Assembly: GCA_001513285.1 (NCBI GenBank)
Contig: LFTI01000013.1
Coordinates: 1-61,559 of the forward strand
DNA length: 61,559 nucleotides
Origin: Rikenellaceae bacterium DTU049
Lineage (GTDB): Bacteria > Bacteroidota > Bacteroidia > Bacteroidales > DTU049
Direction of reading: 5' to 3'
The notes under the pieces are model-generated. The model was not told the DNA's origin. It did no database searches and saw only the letters and a list, made by a program, of their open reading frames with translations. Position numbers and translations under genes: made by a program. How positions within the stretch are numbered: position 1 is the first letter of the stretch; each line of letters begins with the position of its first letter. Shown here piece by piece: positions 13,747 to 41,382 of the stretch.

Positions 13747-14325
13747 ATGAAAAAAATTTTTGTATTAGTTATTTTAATGTTACTATTTTTCACTGCAAAA
13801 AGTCAAAATTCAGATATGTTGAGTTTTGGTTCAGATTTAAAAAGGACCTTTAATCTAGGTGGTGAATTGGGTTTGACAATTGGTACCAATACTAGTATTA
13901 TGGTGTCTGCTAGAGGATCTTATAATTTTAATAATTTTATAGCTTTAGGATTAAATCCGTTTTATTGGTTTATACAGTCTAATTATTATTATCCAGCTAC
14001 AAGCATACATATGACAGGAATGAGAGTGTTTTTAGATTTTTCAATTTTTAAAATGTTATATTTGCACTGTGAATTTGAGGAGTTGCTTTATAAAGCACCA
14101 TCATTAGATTATCCATATAATAAAATTTGGTATACTTCTGAAAATTTATTGATAGGTCCTGGCATTAGGCAACCAATTTCATCTAATTTTTATGCTTATT
14201 TAGAAGTGTTATGGAATCTTAATGAAAATATGAACTCTATCTATTATAGTCCAGTTATTAGAGCTGGTGCTATTTATGTGTTTCCACAAACATTAAAGAG
14301 GAAAAAGTCAGATTTGGAGGAGTAA
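13747..14325 (+). CDS. Hypothetical exported protein, possibly a small outer-membrane beta-barrel
   Basis: Signal peptide MKKIFVLVILMLLFFTAKSQ, alternating aromatic/small residues, and a C-terminal aromatic-rich strand (RAGAIYVF). Confidence 0.5.
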   Translation: MKKIFVLVILMLLFFTAKSQNSDMLSFGSDLKRTFNLGGELGLTIGTNTSIMVSARGSYNFNNFIALGLNPFYWFIQSNYYYPATSIHMTGMRVFLDFSIFKMLYLHCEFEELLYKAPSLDYPYNKIWYTSENLLIGPGIRQPISSNFYAYLEVLWNLNENMNSIYYSPVIRAGAIYVFPQTLKRKKSDLEE

Positions 14326-14979
14326 AAAAGCATTATCTTTTAACCATTTTTTAGCTTTTTTATAATCAGGATATATACTTTCTACTTGTTGCCAAAATTT
14401 GCGAGAATGATTATCAACTTTGAGATGAATGAATTCGTGAATGATTACATAATCTAAAACTTCTATAGGAGCCATTATTAGCCGCCAATTAATATTTATA
14501 TTACCATTATATGAGCAAGATCCCCAGCGTGTTTTAGCATTACTAATTTTTATTTTTGAATATTGAAAATTATAATTATGGGCGTAATATTCAGCTCTAG
14601 ATTTGATTACTTTAGCAGCCTCATCTTTGTACCAGTTAGTGAAAACTTCTTTAGCATTTGCTAAGCAATATTTTGATAAATAAAAATTGTCATTTAGAGT
14701 AAGTAAATTGTCGTAATCATCTACAATTTTTAAAGGATAATATTTACCTAAATAGAGGAATTCTTCACCTTCAGTGAAAGTTAATATTTTTTTATTTCGT
14801 TCAATGATTTCTGATTGTTTAGTTTCTAACCAGTGTTGATGTTTTAAGACAATATCGTTGATTTCTTTTTTGCTTAGTGTGAGGGGAGCTCTCACTATTA
14901 GTGTACCATCATTTTTTATTTGAATAGAGACAGTTTTTCTTTTAGAACGAACGATCTTATCAATTTTGATATTTTTCAT
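14308..14979 (-). CDS. YgjP-like (DUF45) M48-type metallopeptidase
   Basis: ISNAKTRWGSCS....INWRLIMAP.EVLDYVIIHEFIHL..DNHSRKFW contains the HExxH zinc motif in the DUF45 arrangement. Confidence 0.8.
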   Translation of the reverse strand: MKNIKIDKIVRSKRKTVSIQIKNDGTLIVRAPLTLSKKEINDIVLKHQHWLETKQSEIIERNKKILTFTEGEEFLYLGKYYPLKIVDDYDNLLTLNDNFYLSKYCLANAKEVFTNWYKDEAAKVIKSRAEYYAHNYNFQYSKIKISNAKTRWGSCSYNGNININWRLIMAPIEVLDYVIIHEFIHLKVDNHSRKFWQQVESIYPDYKKAKKWLKDNAFLLLQI

Positions 14980-35072: not shown

Positions 35073-36113
35073 ATGAAAAAATATGTGTTGGTAACTTTTT
35101 TTAATTTCATTACTATATTAGTTTTCACTCAGATACCTAATGGATATTATGATAATGCTCAGGGCAAATATGGACAAGAGCTTAGAGTGGCTTTATATAA
35201 TATTATAAAAACTAATGTAACAACTATTAGCTATGACCAATTATGGGATGCATATCCTAGAACTGATAAGAAACCAAATGGTAAAGTATGGGACATTTAT
35301 AGTGATATTCCTAATGGCACTCCACCATATGAGTATACATTTTTCGCAGATCAATGTGGTAATTATACTGGAGAAGGTGTTTGCTATAATAGAGAACACA
35401 CTGTACCAAAAAGTTGGTTTAATGAAGCCTCACCCATGTATAGTGATCTTTTTCATGTTTTACCTACTGACGGTTATGTGAATAGTATGCGAAGCAATCA
35501 TCCCTATGGCAAAGTAGGAAATGCAACCTGGACTTCTGAGAATGGTAGTAAACTTGGTAGTTCTGCAACTAGTGGATATTCTGGCACTGTCTTTGAACCT
35601 ATAGATTCCTTCAAAGGTGATGTAGCACGTATATATTTCTATATGGCTACTAGATATATGGACAAAATAGCTAATTGGACTGGTGAAAGTTTCCAAAATA
35701 GTGATTTATCTTCTTGGGCAAAAAATTTATTCCTGCAATGGCATCAGCTCGATCCTGTTAGTAGTAAAGAAAGAAAAAGAAATGATTCTGTTTATGTAAT
35801 CCAGCATAACAGAAATCCTTTTGTAGATCATCCTGAATGGGTTAATGACATCTGGGGGCCATCAGCCTCTATAAATAATTATGATTTTATTGCATATTTA
35901 TACACTACTAGTGACGCTATAAATGTTAATTTTGTGAATACTTTTGATAATTTGACGATAAAATTATTCTCTATACAAGGCCAACTAATTTATGATGCAG
36001 AAATAAATAATTCAAATAATTTTATCATTCCTATAACTTTCAATCAAGGAGTATACATTTTGACCATATATAATGACCAAAATATTTATACTGAAAAAAT
36101 CGTAATTGAGTAA
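35073..36113 (+). CDS. Secreted endonuclease I family nuclease with T9SS C-terminal sorting domain
   Basis: Signal peptide; YNREHTVPKSWF...DLFHVLPTDGYVNSMRSNHPYG matches the endonuclease I pattern. The last ~75 aa (LTIKLFSIQGQLIY...GVYILTIYNDQNIYTEKIVIE) resembles a type A T9SS CTD. Confidence 0.8.
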   Translation: MKKYVLVTFFNFITILVFTQIPNGYYDNAQGKYGQELRVALYNIIKTNVTTISYDQLWDAYPRTDKKPNGKVWDIYSDIPNGTPPYEYTFFADQCGNYTGEGVCYNREHTVPKSWFNEASPMYSDLFHVLPTDGYVNSMRSNHPYGKVGNATWTSENGSKLGSSATSGYSGTVFEPIDSFKGDVARIYFYMATRYMDKIANWTGESFQNSDLSSWAKNLFLQWHQLDPVSSKERKRNDSVYVIQHNRNPFVDHPEWVNDIWGPSASINNYDFIAYLYTTSDAINVNFVNTFDNLTIKLFSIQGQLIYDAEINNSNNFIIPITFNQGVYILTIYNDQNIYTEKIVIE

Positions 36114-36752
36114 ATGCCTTTAGTTTATTATAATAAGATTTCTAATGGACTAGAATTGGGTATTTGGCATATCACCGAGAGTGTAGATGAATTGCTTAAA
36201 TATTTATATTTGAATAAAGAAGAATTTGCTACACTATACTCTTTTAAAAGTGAAAAAAGAAAAAAACAATGGATGAGCTATAGAGCTTTGATCAGAACTT
36301 TAGTACAAACTGACTTTATTTATCGTATTTATTATGATGAAAATAATAAACCTTATTTAGTAAATCCACCTAGATCTATTAGTGTGAGCCATACAGATAA
36401 CTACTCGGCAGTACTAATAAATGAAAATGTTAATGAAATTAGAGGATTAGATGTAGAGAGGCTCTCCGAAAAAGCTTTTAGAAATAAAAACAAATTTCTC
36501 ACTGATGAAGAAATTAATTTATTACCTATTGATAATTTGTATTTTTATAGCACTTTATTCTGGTCTGCTAAAGAATCTGTTTATAAAAAATTAAATATCC
36601 CTAATATTTTTCTGAAATCAAATATTAAAATCGAAAATATAGATTTTGATAATAATATTATTAATGCCAAATTATTTTATAAAGATATTATTGTAAAAAT
36701 AAATGTTTTTTGGTCTATTTATGATTCTATGGTGATAACATATACTGACTGA
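36114..36752 (+). CDS. 4'-phosphopantetheinyl transferase (Sfp type)
   Basis: GLDVERL and WSAKESVYK motifs. The ATG directly abuts the stop of the nuclease gene. Confidence 0.75.
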   Translation: MPLVYYNKISNGLELGIWHITESVDELLKYLYLNKEEFATLYSFKSEKRKKQWMSYRALIRTLVQTDFIYRIYYDENNKPYLVNPPRSISVSHTDNYSAVLINENVNEIRGLDVERLSEKAFRNKNKFLTDEEINLLPIDNLYFYSTLFWSAKESVYKKLNIPNIFLKSNIKIENIDFDNNIINAKLFYKDIIVKINVFWSIYDSMVITYTD

Positions 36753-36835
36753 GAAATTGGAGACTGGGAGAGGGGGAGAAATATCAAAAATATGGGATAG
36801 TTTAAAAATATAAGATTTATTCTTTATAAAAAAGT

Positions 36836-36874
36836 AATTTATTCAAAAATATTCATTAATTTTACATAATAAAA
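36836..36874 (+). promoter_or_regulatory. 39-bp promoter-like direct repeat, copy 1 (near-consensus -7 box taatttta at 36857-36864)
   Basis: aatttattcaaaaatattcattaattttacataataaaa is identical to 40808-40846 except for one position. In both copies an ATG follows the box at 19-20 nt. Confidence 0.55.
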
Positions 36875-36883
36875 ATATTTTTT

Positions 36884-37543
36884 ATGCACACCGCCAAGGA
36901 GCTAGACAACGAGACCAGTTATACATATTTCGGGGCGAGATATTATGATAGTGAGCTGAGTGTGTGGCTGAGCGTGGATCCGATGAGTGATAAGTATCCA
37001 TCGCTATCGCCATATTGCTATACTGCGAATAATCCAATAATTTTAATAGACCCAGATGGCCGGGCTTGGAAACCTACAACATCAGATGATAAACCAAATG
37101 GTTATGTATGGGTGCCAGAAGGAATATATGAAGCCAAAGTTGGACTGCATAATGGAAATTACACTGCTTTAAGAATGGGCGATGTTGGAACAACAGATTT
37201 TAGCAATAATAGAATAGAATTAGGTACCGAAAATCCAGCTTACAGCGATGGTAGAACCTATGCTACTGGTATCAATATTCATAAAGCGGGTAAAAAAAAC
37301 TTTACTGGGGTTGACATGTATAGAAAGCCCGTTTCAGCAGGATGTATCTTAATAGATATTAATAACTGGAGTAGTTTTATTGGACACTTCAATAATGATG
37401 CTCAGAAAAACAATACAGTAAGTGTTAGTATATCCAGGACTTATAGAAAACCATTAAATTATAATTGGACAACGCCAGTATTTGATCCTCCAATAAATAA
37501 TAACATGATAGATAATACCAGGGTTGTAATACCAGGGTTGTAA
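36884..37543 (+). CDS. Orphan RHS C-terminal module: RHS-core remnant (~60 aa) plus toxin domain with a YkuD/L,D-transpeptidase-like H-x17-S-x-G-C motif
   Basis: SYTYFGARYYDSELSVWLSVDPMSDKYPSLSPYCYTANNPIILIDPDGRAW is the RHS repeat-associated core ending in DPxG. The tail has VPEGIY...INIHKAGKKNFTGVDMYRKPVSAGCILID. Confidence 0.8.
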   Translation: MHTAKELDNETSYTYFGARYYDSELSVWLSVDPMSDKYPSLSPYCYTANNPIILIDPDGRAWKPTTSDDKPNGYVWVPEGIYEAKVGLHNGNYTALRMGDVGTTDFSNNRIELGTENPAYSDGRTYATGINIHKAGKKNFTGVDMYRKPVSAGCILIDINNWSSFIGHFNNDAQKNNTVSVSISRTYRKPLNYNWTTPVFDPPINNNMIDNTRVVIPGL

Positions 37544-37564
37544 AACCATATAGGAGATAAAACC

Positions 37565-38077
37565 ATGAATATAAAAATTTTAACATACATAATTTTTTGT
37601 CTTTTAAGCATAAGTGCAATGGGACAAACGAATAATAATATCAACCAATTAAATGATGAAGGCAAAAAAGAAGGCTTATGGATTGAAAATAATGGATTAA
37701 TAGAAGCATATTACAAAGCCGGTTTAAAAGATGGGATTTTTAAAGCCTATAACCGTAAAAATGGGAAATTGTCTGTATTTGGCGAATTTACCGAAGGCAA
37801 GAAATCTGGGACATGGTATTATTTTGACGAAGCAAGCATTCTTCTTTTTACAGAAACGAATATTGAAAAGAATACTAAATATACAATAATGCGAGATGAT
37901 GGCGTGGAAATTACCCCCTTGTTTACATCTTATGTAATAGACTATTATCCCAATGGCTATATAAAAGCAGAAGGCAGAGTATTGTATGATGAAGATGTCC
38001 AAATACATTCTTTTGAAACTGGAACGTGGAAGTACTATAACAAGCAAGGAGAATTAGTACAGACAAAAGAACATTAA
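37565..38077 (+). CDS. Exported MORN-variant repeat protein (YwqK-type antitoxin family), candidate immunity protein for 36884-37543
   Basis: Signal peptide; repeats GKKEGLWIE.., GLKDGIFKAY.., GKKSGTWYYF.., ETGTWKYYNKQGEL. Lies directly downstream of the toxin ORF. Confidence 0.7.
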   Translation: MNIKILTYIIFCLLSISAMGQTNNNINQLNDEGKKEGLWIENNGLIEAYYKAGLKDGIFKAYNRKNGKLSVFGEFTEGKKSGTWYYFDEASILLFTETNIEKNTKYTIMRDDGVEITPLFTSYVIDYYPNGYIKAEGRVLYDEDVQIHSFETGTWKYYNKQGELVQTKEH

Positions 38078-38198: not shown

Positions 38199-38749
38199 AT
38201 GAATAAAAAATATTTAATAATTATGTTAGTCTTAGCTACCATGATTATATCTTGTTCTACTAATATGAGTACAATTAATAATATCAATAATAAACAGTTT
38301 AAACAACTAAAAAAGTTACACCTAAAACTTATTACATATATTACAAAAAATTTGTAAAAAATTATCGTAATATAATATTAAATGATATATTAGAGGAAAA
38401 ACGATATAAACAACTTTATATAACAGAGATTATAAATCAAATGGATTTAACCAAATATTATGGATATATTTTAGCAGATAATATTGTAGCATATAGTTTC
38501 AATATTGATTTAATGAACAATGTTTTTTATTGGGACAAAATATTGCTTACTGAATATAATAAAAATAATATTTATAATGTTTTTTTTAATGATAATAATT
38601 TCTCCATACTGCGAAATAAGTTTAATCATTCATCTATAGTGTATGATGCTGGATATATATTTTTGCTTAAAATAGTATTTAATAATAAAATTAATATTGA
38701 AACTATTTCTTTTTATGATTTTTCAGAGAATAAAATAATTTATGAATAA
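38199..38749 (+). pseudogene. Lipoprotein gene split by a frameshift at an A6 tract (38309-38314), candidate orphan immunity gene
   Basis: A 52-codon ORF at 38199-38357 (MNKKYLIIMLVLATMIISCSTN..., lipobox) overlaps the upstream open extension (from 38303) of the frame of ORF 38441-38749. One extra A in the tract would join them into a ~183-aa lipoprotein. Confidence 0.5.
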
Positions 38750-38790
38750 ATTTGTATGGTAAATATAAATAATAAAAATAAAACATAATA

Positions 38791-39195
38791 ATGAAAAGTA
38801 TGTATTTACGCAATATTATGATTATAATTTTTATAATATTTATTATAATTATTATTTTTATTTTAAGTTATAATTCACCAAATTTGAATGAAAAAGAGCT
38901 AAAAAGATGTTTTATTAATAAAACAAATATTAGTATTGATGATACTTTCATTATTAGTAAATATGAAAACACAGGTCTTTCAATGTATGATTACTCAGAA
39001 ACTTACTATATAAAAGTTACAGATAATGACTATACAAATATTTTAAAAGAAATTAAATTGAAATATAAAAATTGGATAAAAAATTCAAAAGGTTATGAGT
39101 TATATATACCTCAGAATAAATCTAATGATACCTGTTTTGCATTTCAAATAGATACTATAAATAAATTTTTAATAATTTCAATTATTGAAGAATAA
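38791..39195 (+). CDS. Hypothetical membrane-anchored protein (candidate orphan immunity protein)
   Basis: N-terminal hydrophobic anchor IMIIIFIIFIIIIIFIL. No recognisable domain; position is within the RHS-CT array. Confidence 0.45.
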   Translation: MKSMYLRNIMIIIFIIFIIIIIFILSYNSPNLNEKELKRCFINKTNISIDDTFIISKYENTGLSMYDYSETYYIKVTDNDYTNILKEIKLKYKNWIKNSKGYELYIPQNKSNDTCFAFQIDTINKFLIISIIEE

Positions 39196-39964
39196 AATTG
39201 TAAGGTATTTTTTGATGAGATATAAATATTTTCAAAACATAAAATATATTTTCAAAGTTAATTTGTTTGTTAACCAAAGGAATACTGAGTTAGATATTGA
39301 GTCAAACTATACATACATTGGAGCTTTATATTATGATAGTGAGCTGAGTGGGTGGCTGAGTGTGGATCTGATGAGAGATAAATATCCATCGATATCGCAA
39401 TATTACTATACTGCGGATAATCCAATGGTGCTGGTAGATCCGAATGGGATGCTAATAACAGATTATTATGATATTAAAACAAGTGAACATCTCGAACATA
39501 TAGATGATGTTATAGTTGAAGCAATAGCAATTAAAAATATTGTTTATGATGTTTTAGAAAATCGTTCAAATGTATCTGAAAAATCTATAAATGAAATAAA
39601 TAAATCTACTGCTATATATGGCTATGGTTCCAAAAATTATAATATTGCTTTATCTGAGGGTAAAGGATATAATGCAAATGAATACAGTATTTCTCGACAT
39701 AATGCAGCCAGAAAAGGAGCTATGATGGGTATGCTAAATCGAAATAATAAATTAGATTATAGTCAAGGCGCATATTTTGAGGAAGGCTCAATTTATTTAG
39801 AAAATTCTACAAAATATAATACTAATTTTTTTAATAAACTTGGACATGGTACCACAATAGGATCATATCGTAATAAAAATACATTTTCTTATACTACAAA
39901 GATTGGAGGTACCCCGTTTATGAAATATAATCAAGATCTTTATCCTAAAAAAACATGGCCATGA
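39185..39964 (+). CDS. Second orphan RHS C-terminal module: core remnant plus unrelated toxin tail of unknown fold. The true start is uncertain.
   Basis: NYTYIGALYYDSELSGWLSVDLMRDKYPSISQYYYTADNPMVLVDPNGML. The handle DNA at 39329-39426 is ~91% identical to 36941-37038 by hand alignment, and the tail has no similarity to module 1. Confidence 0.65.
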   Translation: MKNKIVRYFLMRYKYFQNIKYIFKVNLFVNQRNTELDIESNYTYIGALYYDSELSGWLSVDLMRDKYPSISQYYYTADNPMVLVDPNGMLITDYYDIKTSEHLEHIDDVIVEAIAIKNIVYDVLENRSNVSEKSINEINKSTAIYGYGSKNYNIALSEGKGYNANEYSISRHNAARKGAMMGMLNRNNKLDYSQGAYFEEGSIYLENSTKYNTNFFNKLGHGTTIGSYRNKNTFSYTTKIGGTPFMKYNQDLYPKKTWP

Positions 39965-40614
39965 TAAAATATATTTTTAATTTATTTTTAATTTTTAATT
40001 TTATTAGTCATTCATGCTATGCAAATTTATTTGAAAATCCTATAATAAAAGATACATTACAAATAAAAGAAATAGATGAAGGTTACTTAATATATTTAGA
40101 TGATGTTAATATTATCAAACTTGTTAATGATTCTACTAATGTAACATATCTAATTTTACAAGACAAAAATAAAGTTAAATTAGATTTTTATATAATTCCT
40201 CCATATTTAACAGGTGCATATCTATTAAATTTAGATGAATTTGGAAAGGTTTTAGCTCTTGAAAGTTATTCAGTGGGAACTAGTGGTTTAAGTGCTAATA
40301 TAATCAATGTAAGTCTAATTTTCTTAAATAATCATAATAATAATAAAGTTTTATCATACAATTCATTTTGTGGTGGCATTGAACTGTTATTTAAAGATGA
40401 TAATAAATTTTTATTGAATATTTATGATTATAATGGGATAGATAATAATAATGTAACTTATTGCTTAAATATTTTTGAATTAACAAAAGATTGCTTTAAA
40501 CGAACTGATTCACTGCCAAAATGTTATATTGACACAGAAGATAAACAATTAAAATTTTATGATAGATGCAATTGTTCGACATTATATAAGCCATACATTT
40601 TATTTAGAGAATAA
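39955..40614 (+). CDS. Hypothetical exported protein, candidate immunity protein for 39185-39964
   Basis: Signal-peptide-like N-terminus MAMIKYIFNLFLIFNFISHSCYA. Overlaps the toxin stop by 10 nt, suggesting translational coupling. Confidence 0.5.
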   Translation: MAMIKYIFNLFLIFNFISHSCYANLFENPIIKDTLQIKEIDEGYLIYLDDVNIIKLVNDSTNVTYLILQDKNKVKLDFYIIPPYLTGAYLLNLDEFGKVLALESYSVGTSGLSANIINVSLIFLNNHNNNKVLSYNSFCGGIELLFKDDNKFLLNIYDYNGIDNNNVTYCLNIFELTKDCFKRTDSLPKCYIDTEDKQLKFYDRCNCSTLYKPYILFRE

Positions 40615-40633
40615 TAATCAATATTCAAATTAT

Positions 40634-40693
40634 AAAGAGCTAGATAAAAAGTGCAGTTATATGTATTTTGCATCGAGATATTATGATCCATAG
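40634..40693 (+). pseudogene. Third RHS-core handle remnant, truncated after YYD
   Basis: aaagagctagataaaaagtgcagttatatgtattttgcatcgagatattatgatccatag translates to KELDKKCSYMYFASRYYDP*. This parallels KELDNETSYTYFGARYYDS of module 1. Confidence 0.6.
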
Positions 40694-40725
40694 ATTAATT
40701 AAACTTATTATTTTTAAAAAACTTC

Positions 40726-40800
40726 TTGTCAAATCATTTCCCTAGCGTATACCATTCTTTTGTTACTTTTATCTGTTTGGTTGACAAAGAAAAGTAAAAT
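40726..40800 (-). repeat. Repeat family A, hairpin/tail module in reverse orientation
   Basis: The revcomp reads ttttacttttctttgtcaaccaaacagataaaagtaacaaaagaatggtatacgctagggaaatgatttgacaag. Confidence 0.7.
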
Positions 40801-40807
40801 ATATAAA

Positions 40808-40846
40808 AATTTATTCAAAAATATTCATTAATTTTACCTAATAAAA
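40808..40846 (+). promoter_or_regulatory. 39-bp promoter-like direct repeat, copy 2
   Basis: aatttattcaaaaatattcattaattttacctaataaaa, with the taatttta box at 40829-40836, 19 nt before the ATG at 40855. Confidence 0.55.
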
Positions 40847-40854
40847 TTTTATAT

Positions 40855-41382
40855 ATGAAAAATATATTATTTTTTATAATAGTTTTATTTACTTTTCCTT
40901 TCAATCTGTTTTCGCAAAATAAAAATCATGATAGTATCTGTGAGGATGCTATATATGTAAAAACAGATGATTATGAAGGTGTAATATTTGGACCTAAATG
41001 TTTAAAACGTCTATTAATAAAAGATGGAGATACAATAGATGAACCTAGATGGATACCTACAATGCAAGATATAGAAAATGCTGAAAAATTAATTAGAAAA
41101 TATGTAACAAAAAAATCTAAACATCATTTAGTAAATCAAGGTAATGGATGTCCGATAATATATCAAAATTTTGACAAATATGTTCGTCAATATTATGGTA
41201 CTTATAACAAAAAAGGTCAAAAAATATTAGAGGTTAATTTTTTATGGAGAGAATATGCTTATGAAACGGAATGGAAATGTGTTCGTTTAATGATATTTGA
41301 TGGTTGTAGCTTTTATTGGGATATAAGTGTAAATATGAATAAGAAAAAATGTTTTGATTATTGGGTAAATGGAATTGGATAA
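40855..41382 (+). CDS. Hypothetical secreted cysteine-containing protein (possible orphan immunity protein)
   Basis: Signal peptide MKNILFFIIVLFTFPFNLFSQ. No recognisable domain. Lies at the distal edge of the RHS-CT array. Confidence 0.5.
   Translation: MKNILFFIIVLFTFPFNLFSQNKNHDSICEDAIYVKTDDYEGVIFGPKCLKRLLIKDGDTIDEPRWIPTMQDIENAEKLIRKYVTKKSKHHLVNQGNGCPIIYQNFDKYVRQYYGTYNKKGQKILEVNFLWREYAYETEWKCVRLMIFDGCSFYWDISVNMNKKKCFDYWVNGIG

Follow-up and report, generated by a model that had tools for sequence, protein, structure and literature searches.

Orphan rhs-CT/rhsI modules, lying downstream of or apart from the main rhs genes, are known from enterobacteria. In Bacillus subtilis, the MORN_2 protein YwqK is the immunity protein for the LXG toxin YwqJ. 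Toxins of the Tox-LD-peptidase type are linked to rearrangement hotspot (RHS) proteins, carry conserved H, S, and C residues, and occur in Bacteroidetes among others (Zhang et al. 2012, PMC3482391). The Tlde1 effectors (PF10908, DUF2778), which belong to type VI secretion systems (T6SS), have L,D-carboxypeptidase and exchange activity (PMC9638812). The rAID-1 systems of gut Bacteroidales, which are defined by a 5' XerD-like recombinase, are arrays of orphan immunity genes with low guanine-plus-cytosine (GC) content and repetitive intergenic sequences, play a protective role, and show expression in metatranscriptomes (bioRxiv 10.1101/471110). Here we describe a two-gene cassette that shares traits with each of these systems. 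It lies on contig LFTI01000013.1 of Rikenellaceae bacterium DTU049 (assembly GCA_001513285.1), and "the window" below means the whole stretch of 61,559 nucleotides (nt) that was analyzed, positions 1 to 61,559 of the forward strand. The window is contig C16 of genome G000 (1.54 Mb, 64% complete), and its sequence is present in biogas-fermenter and anaerobic-digester samples. Coordinates are those of the window, and features lie on the plus strand unless stated otherwise. The cassette consists of a toxin open reading frame (ORF) at 36884-37543 (219 amino acids [aa]) and an immunity ORF at 37565-38077 (170 aa); both sets of coordinates, taken from a first-pass annotation made from the letters alone, were confirmed. 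Taken as a whole, the locus is best explained as a transcribed orphan cassette in which a probably crippled and probably L,D-peptidase-like toxin is accompanied by an exported immunity protein that would act as a shield, a reading that we rate as slightly better than an even proposition.

The cassette is an orphan RHS toxin-immunity cassette of an already known kind. Residues 3 to 59 of the 219-aa ORF match TIGR03696 Rhs_assc_core at 56.1 bits (cutoff, 32.5), and this core remnant (36884-37063; aa 1 to 60), a potential homology arm for recombination, terminates at the DPxG boundary in ...LIDPDGR/AW. Its GC content is 45.6%, compared to 28.7% for the window. The YD repeats of an RHS shell were not found in frame upstream, where the frame is closed 8 codons before the start (open frame of 227 aa), and neither a signal peptide nor a PAAR domain, RHS shell, or other delivery domain was found in the 219-aa product. 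The same tail also ends full-length RHS proteins, forming the C termini of proteins of 1119 to 4453 aa; all five full-length carriers that were scanned contain DUF6443, and four of them match RHS_repeat. The core match, the missing shell, the shared tail, and the paired immunity gene together make up the full set of features of an orphan RHS C-terminal module, and the earlier reading of the locus as such a module was correct.

Alignment of the DNA with an intact allele at another locus (L044) revealed that the window toxin carries an in-frame deletion of 207 nt (69 codons), which the first-pass annotation had missed. The deleted segment is flanked in L044 by two copies of a 10-bp direct repeat, GTGCCAGAAG, and the single copy remaining in the window, at 37112-37121, marks the deletion scar. 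What was lost is VPEEQSY...GLYHQAIFF...GSATAVVYLADGTKVEYDATTRPSD..YAT, the repeats in L044 flanking VPEEQSY...NKYAT, and a stretch of about 69 residues that stands between NGYVW and VPEG in all close homologs is absent from the window toxin. The segment is kept in 81 of the 93 members able to have it (87%) and in 18 of 20 proteins of at least 600 aa. In an AlphaFold2 (AF2) model of the intact homolog P0006, it holds two strands modeled at a predicted local distance difference test score (pLDDT) of ~90 to 95. The same deletion is shared by sister strains on 17 contigs and is therefore an established allele. Because 69 conserved residues of the toxin domain are gone, a working 219-aa toxin is doubtful; given also that the product has no signal peptide, RHS shell, or delivery domain, the window toxin is most likely an inactive, harmless cytoplasmic stub, as far as its sequence allows us to judge. 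It had been proposed that the module may be expressed as a 219-aa protein carrying only about 60 aa of RHS core and no obvious delivery domain. The core length, the missing delivery domain, and the transcription of the cassette all agree with that proposal, but the deletion makes a functional toxin doubtful.

The immunity gene, in contrast to the probably crippled toxin, is intact and under purifying selection. Its ratio of nonsynonymous to synonymous substitution rates (dN/dS) is 0.40 (dS, 0.27) between the window and locus L060 and 0.34 (dS, 0.35) between the window and L044; the corresponding values for the toxin tail are 0.46 (dS, 0.06) and 0.76 (dS, 0.08). The protein starts with MNIKILTYIIFCLLSISAMG/QTNNN, which by eye resembles a signal peptide (~37565-37624) with putative cleavage at AMG/Q and Gln at +1. 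A Gln at this position is typical of signal peptidase I substrates in Bacteroidota. PF07661 MORN_2 was matched by 17 of 19 immunity homologs (best E value, 4.3e-15); the window protein itself has no PF07661 match at an E value of ≤1, and its MORN_2 membership comes via homologs at 52 to 81% identity. The gene that follows an intact toxin allele is 80% identical to the window immunity gene, and at three further loci with toxins of 53 to 62% identity the downstream genes are 31 to 41% identical to it. The pairing of toxin and immunity gene is thus conserved, since homologous genes follow toxins of the family at four other loci. The signal-peptide-like start, the PF07661 matches of the homologs, and the pairing kept in diverged loci all sustain the original proposal of an exported MORN-type partner. 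An exported immunity protein would imply that the target of the toxin is periplasmic, and the observation that an exported MORN_2-type partner stays with the toxin family supports the periplasmic placement that had been suggested. As a separate observation, the immunity gene is mosaic: its ends are near-identical to those of the allele neighboring the intact toxin, whereas residues ~44 to 95 are strongly diverged. This mosaic, along with a dS of 0.27 to 0.35 compared to 0.06 to 0.08 for the toxin, suggests recombination or diversifying change.

The cassette is transcribed. Five metatranscriptomes from independent studies yielded contigs identical to the window from 37030 to between 38052 and 38426, spanning the junction left by the deletion as well as the immunity gene in full. 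Word depths of the cassette RNA in the five runs were 34.5, 5.8, 22.7, 21.7, and 47.3; in four of them this equals the level of the neighboring housekeeping genes, and in the remaining run (X25) it is ~0.4 of the nearest upstream bin. The adjacent stretch 38500-39200 showed no RNA in four runs and a word depth of 0.2 to 12 in run X4, compared to 34.5 in the cassette. Since the DNA runs cover 38500-39200 evenly, contamination with DNA can be ruled out.

The toxin tail (37064-37543; aa 61 to 219), of which the last ~33 residues are predicted to be disordered, defines a family of its own. A tail-only search of 1.8 billion representative proteins returned 118 clusters (50% identity), many of them with the match at the extreme C terminus. 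A His followed by 17 residues and then S-x-G-C had been pointed out in the tail, and this arrangement is both present and conserved: 17 residues separate H133 (codon 37280-37282) from S151-A-G-C154 (Cys codon 37343-37345). In the 35 closer homologs, H133, S151, and C154 are invariant, as are G87, Y93, A95, L96, L113, N117, G129, and I132 and, further along, G136, T141, W162, F165, and F169. A set of 89 members keeps the His without exception and the Cys in at least 90%, and all four of H89, N117, H133, and C154 stay invariant in 14 of the most diverged ones. Taken over the family, H89 and N117 are nearly invariant. Because it is conserved across all three alignments, the His...S-x-G-Cys motif is no chance pattern and, judging from this conservation, is a catalytic signature. 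Between the His and the Cys lies a hypervariable loop (37292-37327; aa 137 to 148, KKNFTGVDMYRK), the length of which ranges from ~12 to ~45 residues among the 14 most diverged members. Eight of the 14 amino acid differences between the window toxin and the intact allele L044 fall within these 12 residues; the loop may contact the immunity protein, which such clustered differences would fit. The AF2 model of the window tail has a pLDDT of 73.8, exceeding 90 over most of tail residues 20 to 80 and 100 to 125, and the model of the intact homolog P0006 reaches 87.0, with 135 of 171 residues at ≥90.

The first-pass annotation likened the motif of this tail to the catalytic His/Cys pair of the YkuD fold of L,D-transpeptidases. 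The family consensus has a sole Pfam match among 24,736 models, and that match is to PF03734 YkuD (E value, 0.011; 16.8 bits against a cutoff of 23.4), with 105 residues aligned co-linearly, consensus residues 6 to 110 with model positions 14 to 125 of 146. Weak matches to PF03734 were also seen in 6 of the 89 members (best E value, 0.009), and YkuD is the only non-RHS family to recur besides minor ones. The motif H-x-x(14-17)-[S/T]-H-G-C-h of YkuD domains is present as H133-K-A-x15-S151-A-G-C154-I, with the second His of the motif replaced by Ala, Glu, or Gln. In YkuD structures, the Cys opens a short strand, behind which come a helix and the last strand. The P0006 model runs from two strands and T-V-P-x-G to a hairpin and on to strands that end in I-H; after a loop, the Cys opens a short strand, and a helix and the final strand come next. 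This order, together with the T-x-P-x-G, I-H, and S-x-G-C motifs, is co-linear with small YkuD domains in low-stringency alignments. In permuted papain-like enzymes, by comparison, the Cys stands at the N terminus of a helix; a permuted NlpC/P60 domain (order His...His...Cys) was considered and rejected, since the Cys of the model opens a strand, not a helix, and Foldseek returned no such fold.

Profile-profile comparison had been proposed as a check. In an hhalign comparison with 21 small YkuD domains drawn from the same phylum, the family gave a P value of 0.027, with the alignment centered on G-I-x-I-H...S-x-G-C and the following helix, compared to 0.33 to 0.54 for negative controls in the same setup. 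A Tlde1-domain tail from the same genome scored 0.021, and even two true YkuD subfamilies reached only 6e-4 (probability, 29%), which indicates low power. Given these control values, and with a test of such low power, the similarity of the family to YkuD is at the level expected of a relative as distant as Tlde1. Comparisons with YcbB-like, YkuD_2-like, and Tlde1-like sets gave P values of 0.017, 0.1, and 0.09, respectively, the alignments being confined to the motif, and our own narrow YkuD hidden Markov models matched none of the family members.

Several results weigh against the YkuD assignment. The window protein has no Pfam match at an E value of ≤1, no Pfam or NCBIfam model reaches its threshold on the window tail, the PF03734 profile matches nothing in the whole genome, and sequence and profile searches of the PDB recovered the RHS core only. 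A profile of the 14 most diverged members, run against a set of 5.8 billion proteins, reached no protein annotated as YkuD or Tlde1; its weak matches belong to no Pfam family. A Pfam scan of the most diverged hits gave no bridge to any known family. For the structural comparison that had also been suggested, Foldseek searches of the PDB returned nothing significant with either model. With the P0006 model, no L,D-transpeptidase stood among the top 50 matches, and with the window model the top match was the Enterococcus faecium L,D-transpeptidase Ldtfm (6fj1) at an insignificant E value of 0.41 and a TM score of 0.24. A search of BFVD with the model of the intact homolog likewise gave nothing significant.

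These results leave room for a Cys/His enzyme whose fold is unrelated to YkuD and whose motif arose by convergence, with a substrate that is perhaps not the peptidoglycan stem peptides. The missing PDB and BFVD neighbors favor such an enzyme, given that 135 of the 171 residues of the P0006 model are confidently placed, as does the fact that every sequence link to YkuD stays below threshold. So do His89 and Asn117, which are conserved in the family at positions for which we know of no conserved counterpart in YkuD enzymes. Against an unrelated fold, the one match of the consensus in all of Pfam is YkuD, co-linear over 105 residues, the secondary-structure order and the three motifs follow those of YkuD domains, and the hhalign setup was too low-powered to recover even true YkuD subfamilies strongly. 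We regard an unrelated fold as a real possibility but the lesser one, and membership of the tail family in the YkuD superfamily as moderately probable. The conserved His and Cys, the consensus match, and the weak matches of individual members thus keep the YkuD link plausible, but it is unproven, all sequence links being subthreshold. If it holds, peptidoglycan-editing toxins would extend to DUF6443-RHS carriers.

A second alternative concerns not the fold but the state of the protein: the 219-aa product may be a working stand-alone toxin, made from its own start and reaching its targets by some route. Here the points that weigh against an inactive stub are that the frame is open, that all conserved polar residues remain, and that AF2 still folds the core; the loss of activity is deduced from the deletion, and the toxin dN/dS of 0.46 to 0.76 rests on few changes. 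In addition, the cassette is transcribed with a conserved leader and ATG at its head, and many samples contain the deletion allele as a stable form. A working toxin would nevertheless have to function without 69 conserved residues that include two confidently modeled strands, and it would have to leave the cell without a signal peptide, RHS shell, PAAR domain, or other delivery domain. Its target, if the exported immunity protein is a guide, is in the periplasm, a compartment out of reach for a stub in the cytoplasm. Nor is there a sign of a T6SS route: a search with PF05943 (TssC/VipB) found no match in 13 genomes, namely, the window's own (64% complete) and 12 relatives, 9 of the 13 being of high quality. 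A working toxin is accordingly improbable, and we retain the inactive stub as the preferred reading.

How the cassette comes to be transcribed may be explained by the sequence at its head. Directly before the ATG lies a 45-nt, AT-rich leader, TTATTCAAAAATATTCATTAATTTTACATAATAAAAATATTTTTT (36839-36883), a candidate promoter and 5' untranslated region. Eight copies are present in the genome (36839-36883 and 40811-40855 in the window, one each on contigs C5, C53, and C90, and three on C94), and in every case the ATG of an orphan RHS-core or exported-protein ORF follows immediately. The leader occurs in all seven genomes of the genus, at 2 to 19 copies; outside the genus, 13 of 14 genomes have none and the other has a single match with 2 mismatches, and a reversed control pattern gave 0 matches in any genome. 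The intact allele L044 is headed by the same leader. Since leader and ATG are repeated genus-wide, an own start is the rule in this lineage, and not, as had been supposed, unusual for an orphan module. The leader probably supplies the promoter and the start of these cassettes and would show how orphan cassettes can stay expressed as a shield.

The position of the promoter is less clear. A near-match to the −7 box, TAATTTTA, does lie 20 nt upstream of the ATG, inside the leader, as had been noted; by itself it is no evidence, since one-mismatch matches to TAnnTTTG in the window are at chance level (1820 observed, compared to 1711 expected from shuffles). A scan for sigma-70 promoters and terminators, which is not suited to Bacteroidota, gave promoter matches at chance level and no terminator. 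Against an independent promoter stands an RNA contig from run X4 (36437-36934; depth, 10.6, compared to 34.5 in the cassette) that reads through from the upstream gene, although this difference in depth is compatible with read-through as well as with an added promoter. In runs X25 to X28, RNA depth was low over 36736-36852; a promoter step was considered and rejected, because the many mismatches just upstream in X26 and X27 and the divergence of X28 past 36768 show that the sequence there is a different one in those samples. The start of the RNA contigs at ~37030 reflects the repeated core, which breaks assemblies, and is not a transcript start. The first-pass annotation had proposed a test for a transcript starting near 36870: RNA of the cassette was found in five metatranscriptomes, but its 5' end is masked by repeats and strain variants, and the low upstream depth in the other runs is confounded by variants.

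The second leader copy in the window belongs to a stretch (40559-41382) that comprises a 44-aa RHS-core fragment, an inverted repeat (~40760-40800, CTTTT..TCTGT / ACAAAGAAAAG), the leader, and a 175-aa exported-protein ORF. The same hairpin stands ahead of other leader copies as well, several in number (C94 and L044), but not at 36839. It is conceivable, though in our view rather doubtful, that the orphan RHS modules of this genus are self-expressing cassettes that need no recombinase of their own, with the leader supplying promoter and start codon at a fixed position of the RHS core, and are shuffled via leader and core, and that the toxin domain is a new L,D-peptidase branch or a look-alike. 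If so, immunity genes and harmless cytoplasmic stubs would be expressed wherever a cassette lands.

Traces of recombination are evident around the cassette. Over 164 nt, the core remnant shares 83% identity with the terminal part of the main rhs gene found on contig C74. Its 5' part (36884 to ~36995; ~110 nt) is unlike that of the sister strains and the rest is identical to them, which indicates a recombination tract within the core. In the sister strains, the transferase gene and the deleted toxin are separated by a GGAGAC-rich repeat tract, one copy of the leader, two genes for exported proteins, and an RHS core stretch that is longer and has no ATG; in the window, the leader and ATG replace this segment. 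The intact allele P0003 lies in an orphan-module array of the main rhs region of a related genome, by a pyruvate-phosphate dikinase gene. Contig C74 (1-4240) presents the same context: it begins within the 3' end of the main rhs gene, the tail of which is an M23 peptidase (PF01551; E value, 4.6e-20), and continues with an exported immunity-like gene, two orphan modules, and the pyruvate-phosphate dikinase gene. The similarity of the core to the main rhs end, the recombination tract, and the position of the intact allele in a main rhs array could mean that the cassette is only a silent reserve, functionless in place, to be recombined into the main rhs gene, but this is very unlikely in view of transcription at the housekeeping level in four of the five metatranscriptomes (~0.4 in the fifth), purifying selection on the immunity gene, and the poor spare part that a deleted toxin makes.

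Orphan modules were also seen elsewhere in the genome. In the window, 39185-40614 holds a degenerate RHS core (TIGR03696, 32.7 bits) with a TTG start and a 170-aa tail of no assigned family; a 219-aa protein with a signal peptide overlaps its end, and RNA over this module is low and patchy. On the minus strand of contig C94, a leader-headed orphan module (ORF start at ~14321; RHS core, 14142-14327) encodes a 206-aa product that ends in ...NFSIHGGTTLGSAGCIDL... and matches the PF10908 Tlde1_dom at an E value of 3e-4, below the cutoff, with a weak LysM-like stretch before it. The C94 module would thus be a second, clearer L,D-peptidase-type orphan in this genome.

The genes upstream of the cassette are housekeeping genes (oxaloacetate-decarboxylase-type, nusB, nth, endonuclease I, and phosphopantetheinyl-transferase). 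Past the phosphopantetheinyl-transferase gene lies intergenic DNA (36753-36838) with a short remnant rich in GGAGAC/GGGAGA at ~36760-36785, and GC content over 36753-36883 is 19.8%. This short-repeat tract lies at the left boundary of the island and measures ~35 nt in the window (36753-36790) and ~300 nt in the sister strains (L061:3890-4150). The endonuclease I gene (35073-36113) has a C-terminal Por_Secre_tail domain (type IX secretion), according to the Pfam matches of its sister-strain counterpart; from this domain, the host organism probably possesses a type IX secretion system. Downstream of the cassette, between it and the next module, 38199-39195 encodes a lipoprotein-like fragment of 52 aa, a membrane protein of 134 aa, and an ORF of 102 aa, none with a family match, and most of this stretch had no RNA in four of the five metatranscriptomes. 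These three small ORFs may be decayed immunity genes.

We propose that the toxin domain normally ends large DUF6443-RHS proteins and most likely represents a Cys/His thiol enzyme, a distant relative of YkuD-type L,D-transpeptidases or carboxypeptidases. The intact toxin would attack peptidoglycan stem peptides in the periplasm of the target cell, and the Sec-exported MORN_2 protein would neutralize it there, probably by covering the variable His-Cys loop. The observed loss of the N-terminal third of the toxin domain (69 residues) is the result of a slip between the two 10-bp direct repeats. With a third of the toxin domain lost and the exported immunity gene both intact and transcribed, the most likely function of the cassette is that of a shield, probably one against neighbors that deploy the intact toxin. 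The RHS-core remnant would remain a homology arm for recombination, with the ATG and the genus-specific leader probably providing expression. The arrangement of the cassette is ordinary, with some details that are instructive, and none of these findings overturns current ideas. The tail nonetheless represents a defined, testable RHS toxin family that has no Pfam model; its partner, in Bacteroidales from outside the gut that apparently lack a T6SS, is an exported MORN_2 protein. The intact and 69-residue-deletion alleles, with near-identical immunity genes, amount to a natural experiment on the role of the N-terminal subdomain.

Among the described systems, the T6SS effectors to which the first-pass annotation had likened the toxin are a poor analogy, given that TssC/VipB was not found in the 13 genomes and that the full-length carriers are DUF6443-RHS proteins. 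The cassette resembles Tlde1 in being an antibacterial toxin with a His/Cys motif of the L,D-transpeptidase type and, as far as can be inferred for the window, periplasmic action and immunity (PMC9638812). It differs in its RHS carrier, in the missing T6SS sheath gene, and in its His-Cys spacing, which is 21 residues in the window tail and 10 in Tlde1a (H121, C131; PMC9638812); the PF10908 model matched neither the window protein nor the family consensus, and the hhalign comparison with a Tlde1-like tail was not significant. With Tox-LD-peptidase, the tail shares the RHS carrier, the conserved His, Ser, and Cys in the same order, and the presumed attack on peptidoglycan; unlike Tox-LD-peptidase, for which Imm16 and Imm57 are listed (PMC3482391), it is accompanied by an exported MORN_2 immunity protein, and its own fold assignment is subthreshold. 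As in rAID-1, GC content is low, RNA is present in metatranscriptomes, the role is probably protective, and repetitive intergenic sequence separates the cassettes, here the 45-nt leader with its eight copies and genus-wide occurrence, but the cassettes retain toxin genes with RHS-core stubs. Membership in rAID-1 was rejected for want of a XerD-like tyrosine recombinase heading the array: the three PF00589 matches of the genome lie on contigs C82, C64, and C20, and none lies on the window contig or on the other array contigs. Like YwqK, the immunity protein has MORN-variant repeats and its gene comes straight after that of a polymorphic toxin; unlike YwqK, it has a signal peptide, recognized by eye, and presumably a periplasmic location. 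An NCBIfam scan gave no match to a YwqK-specific model and only one to the LIC20035 adhesin model, far below the cutoff. The cassette is also like the orphan rhs-CT/rhsI modules of enterobacteria, which consist of a core fragment up to DPxG, a variable tail, and a downstream immunity gene, with the core as a homology arm. In contrast to those modules, the ones described here start at the same core position behind a 45-nt leader with their own ATG, and the window module lies away from the main rhs locus, among housekeeping genes, where it is transcribed with its toxin internally deleted.

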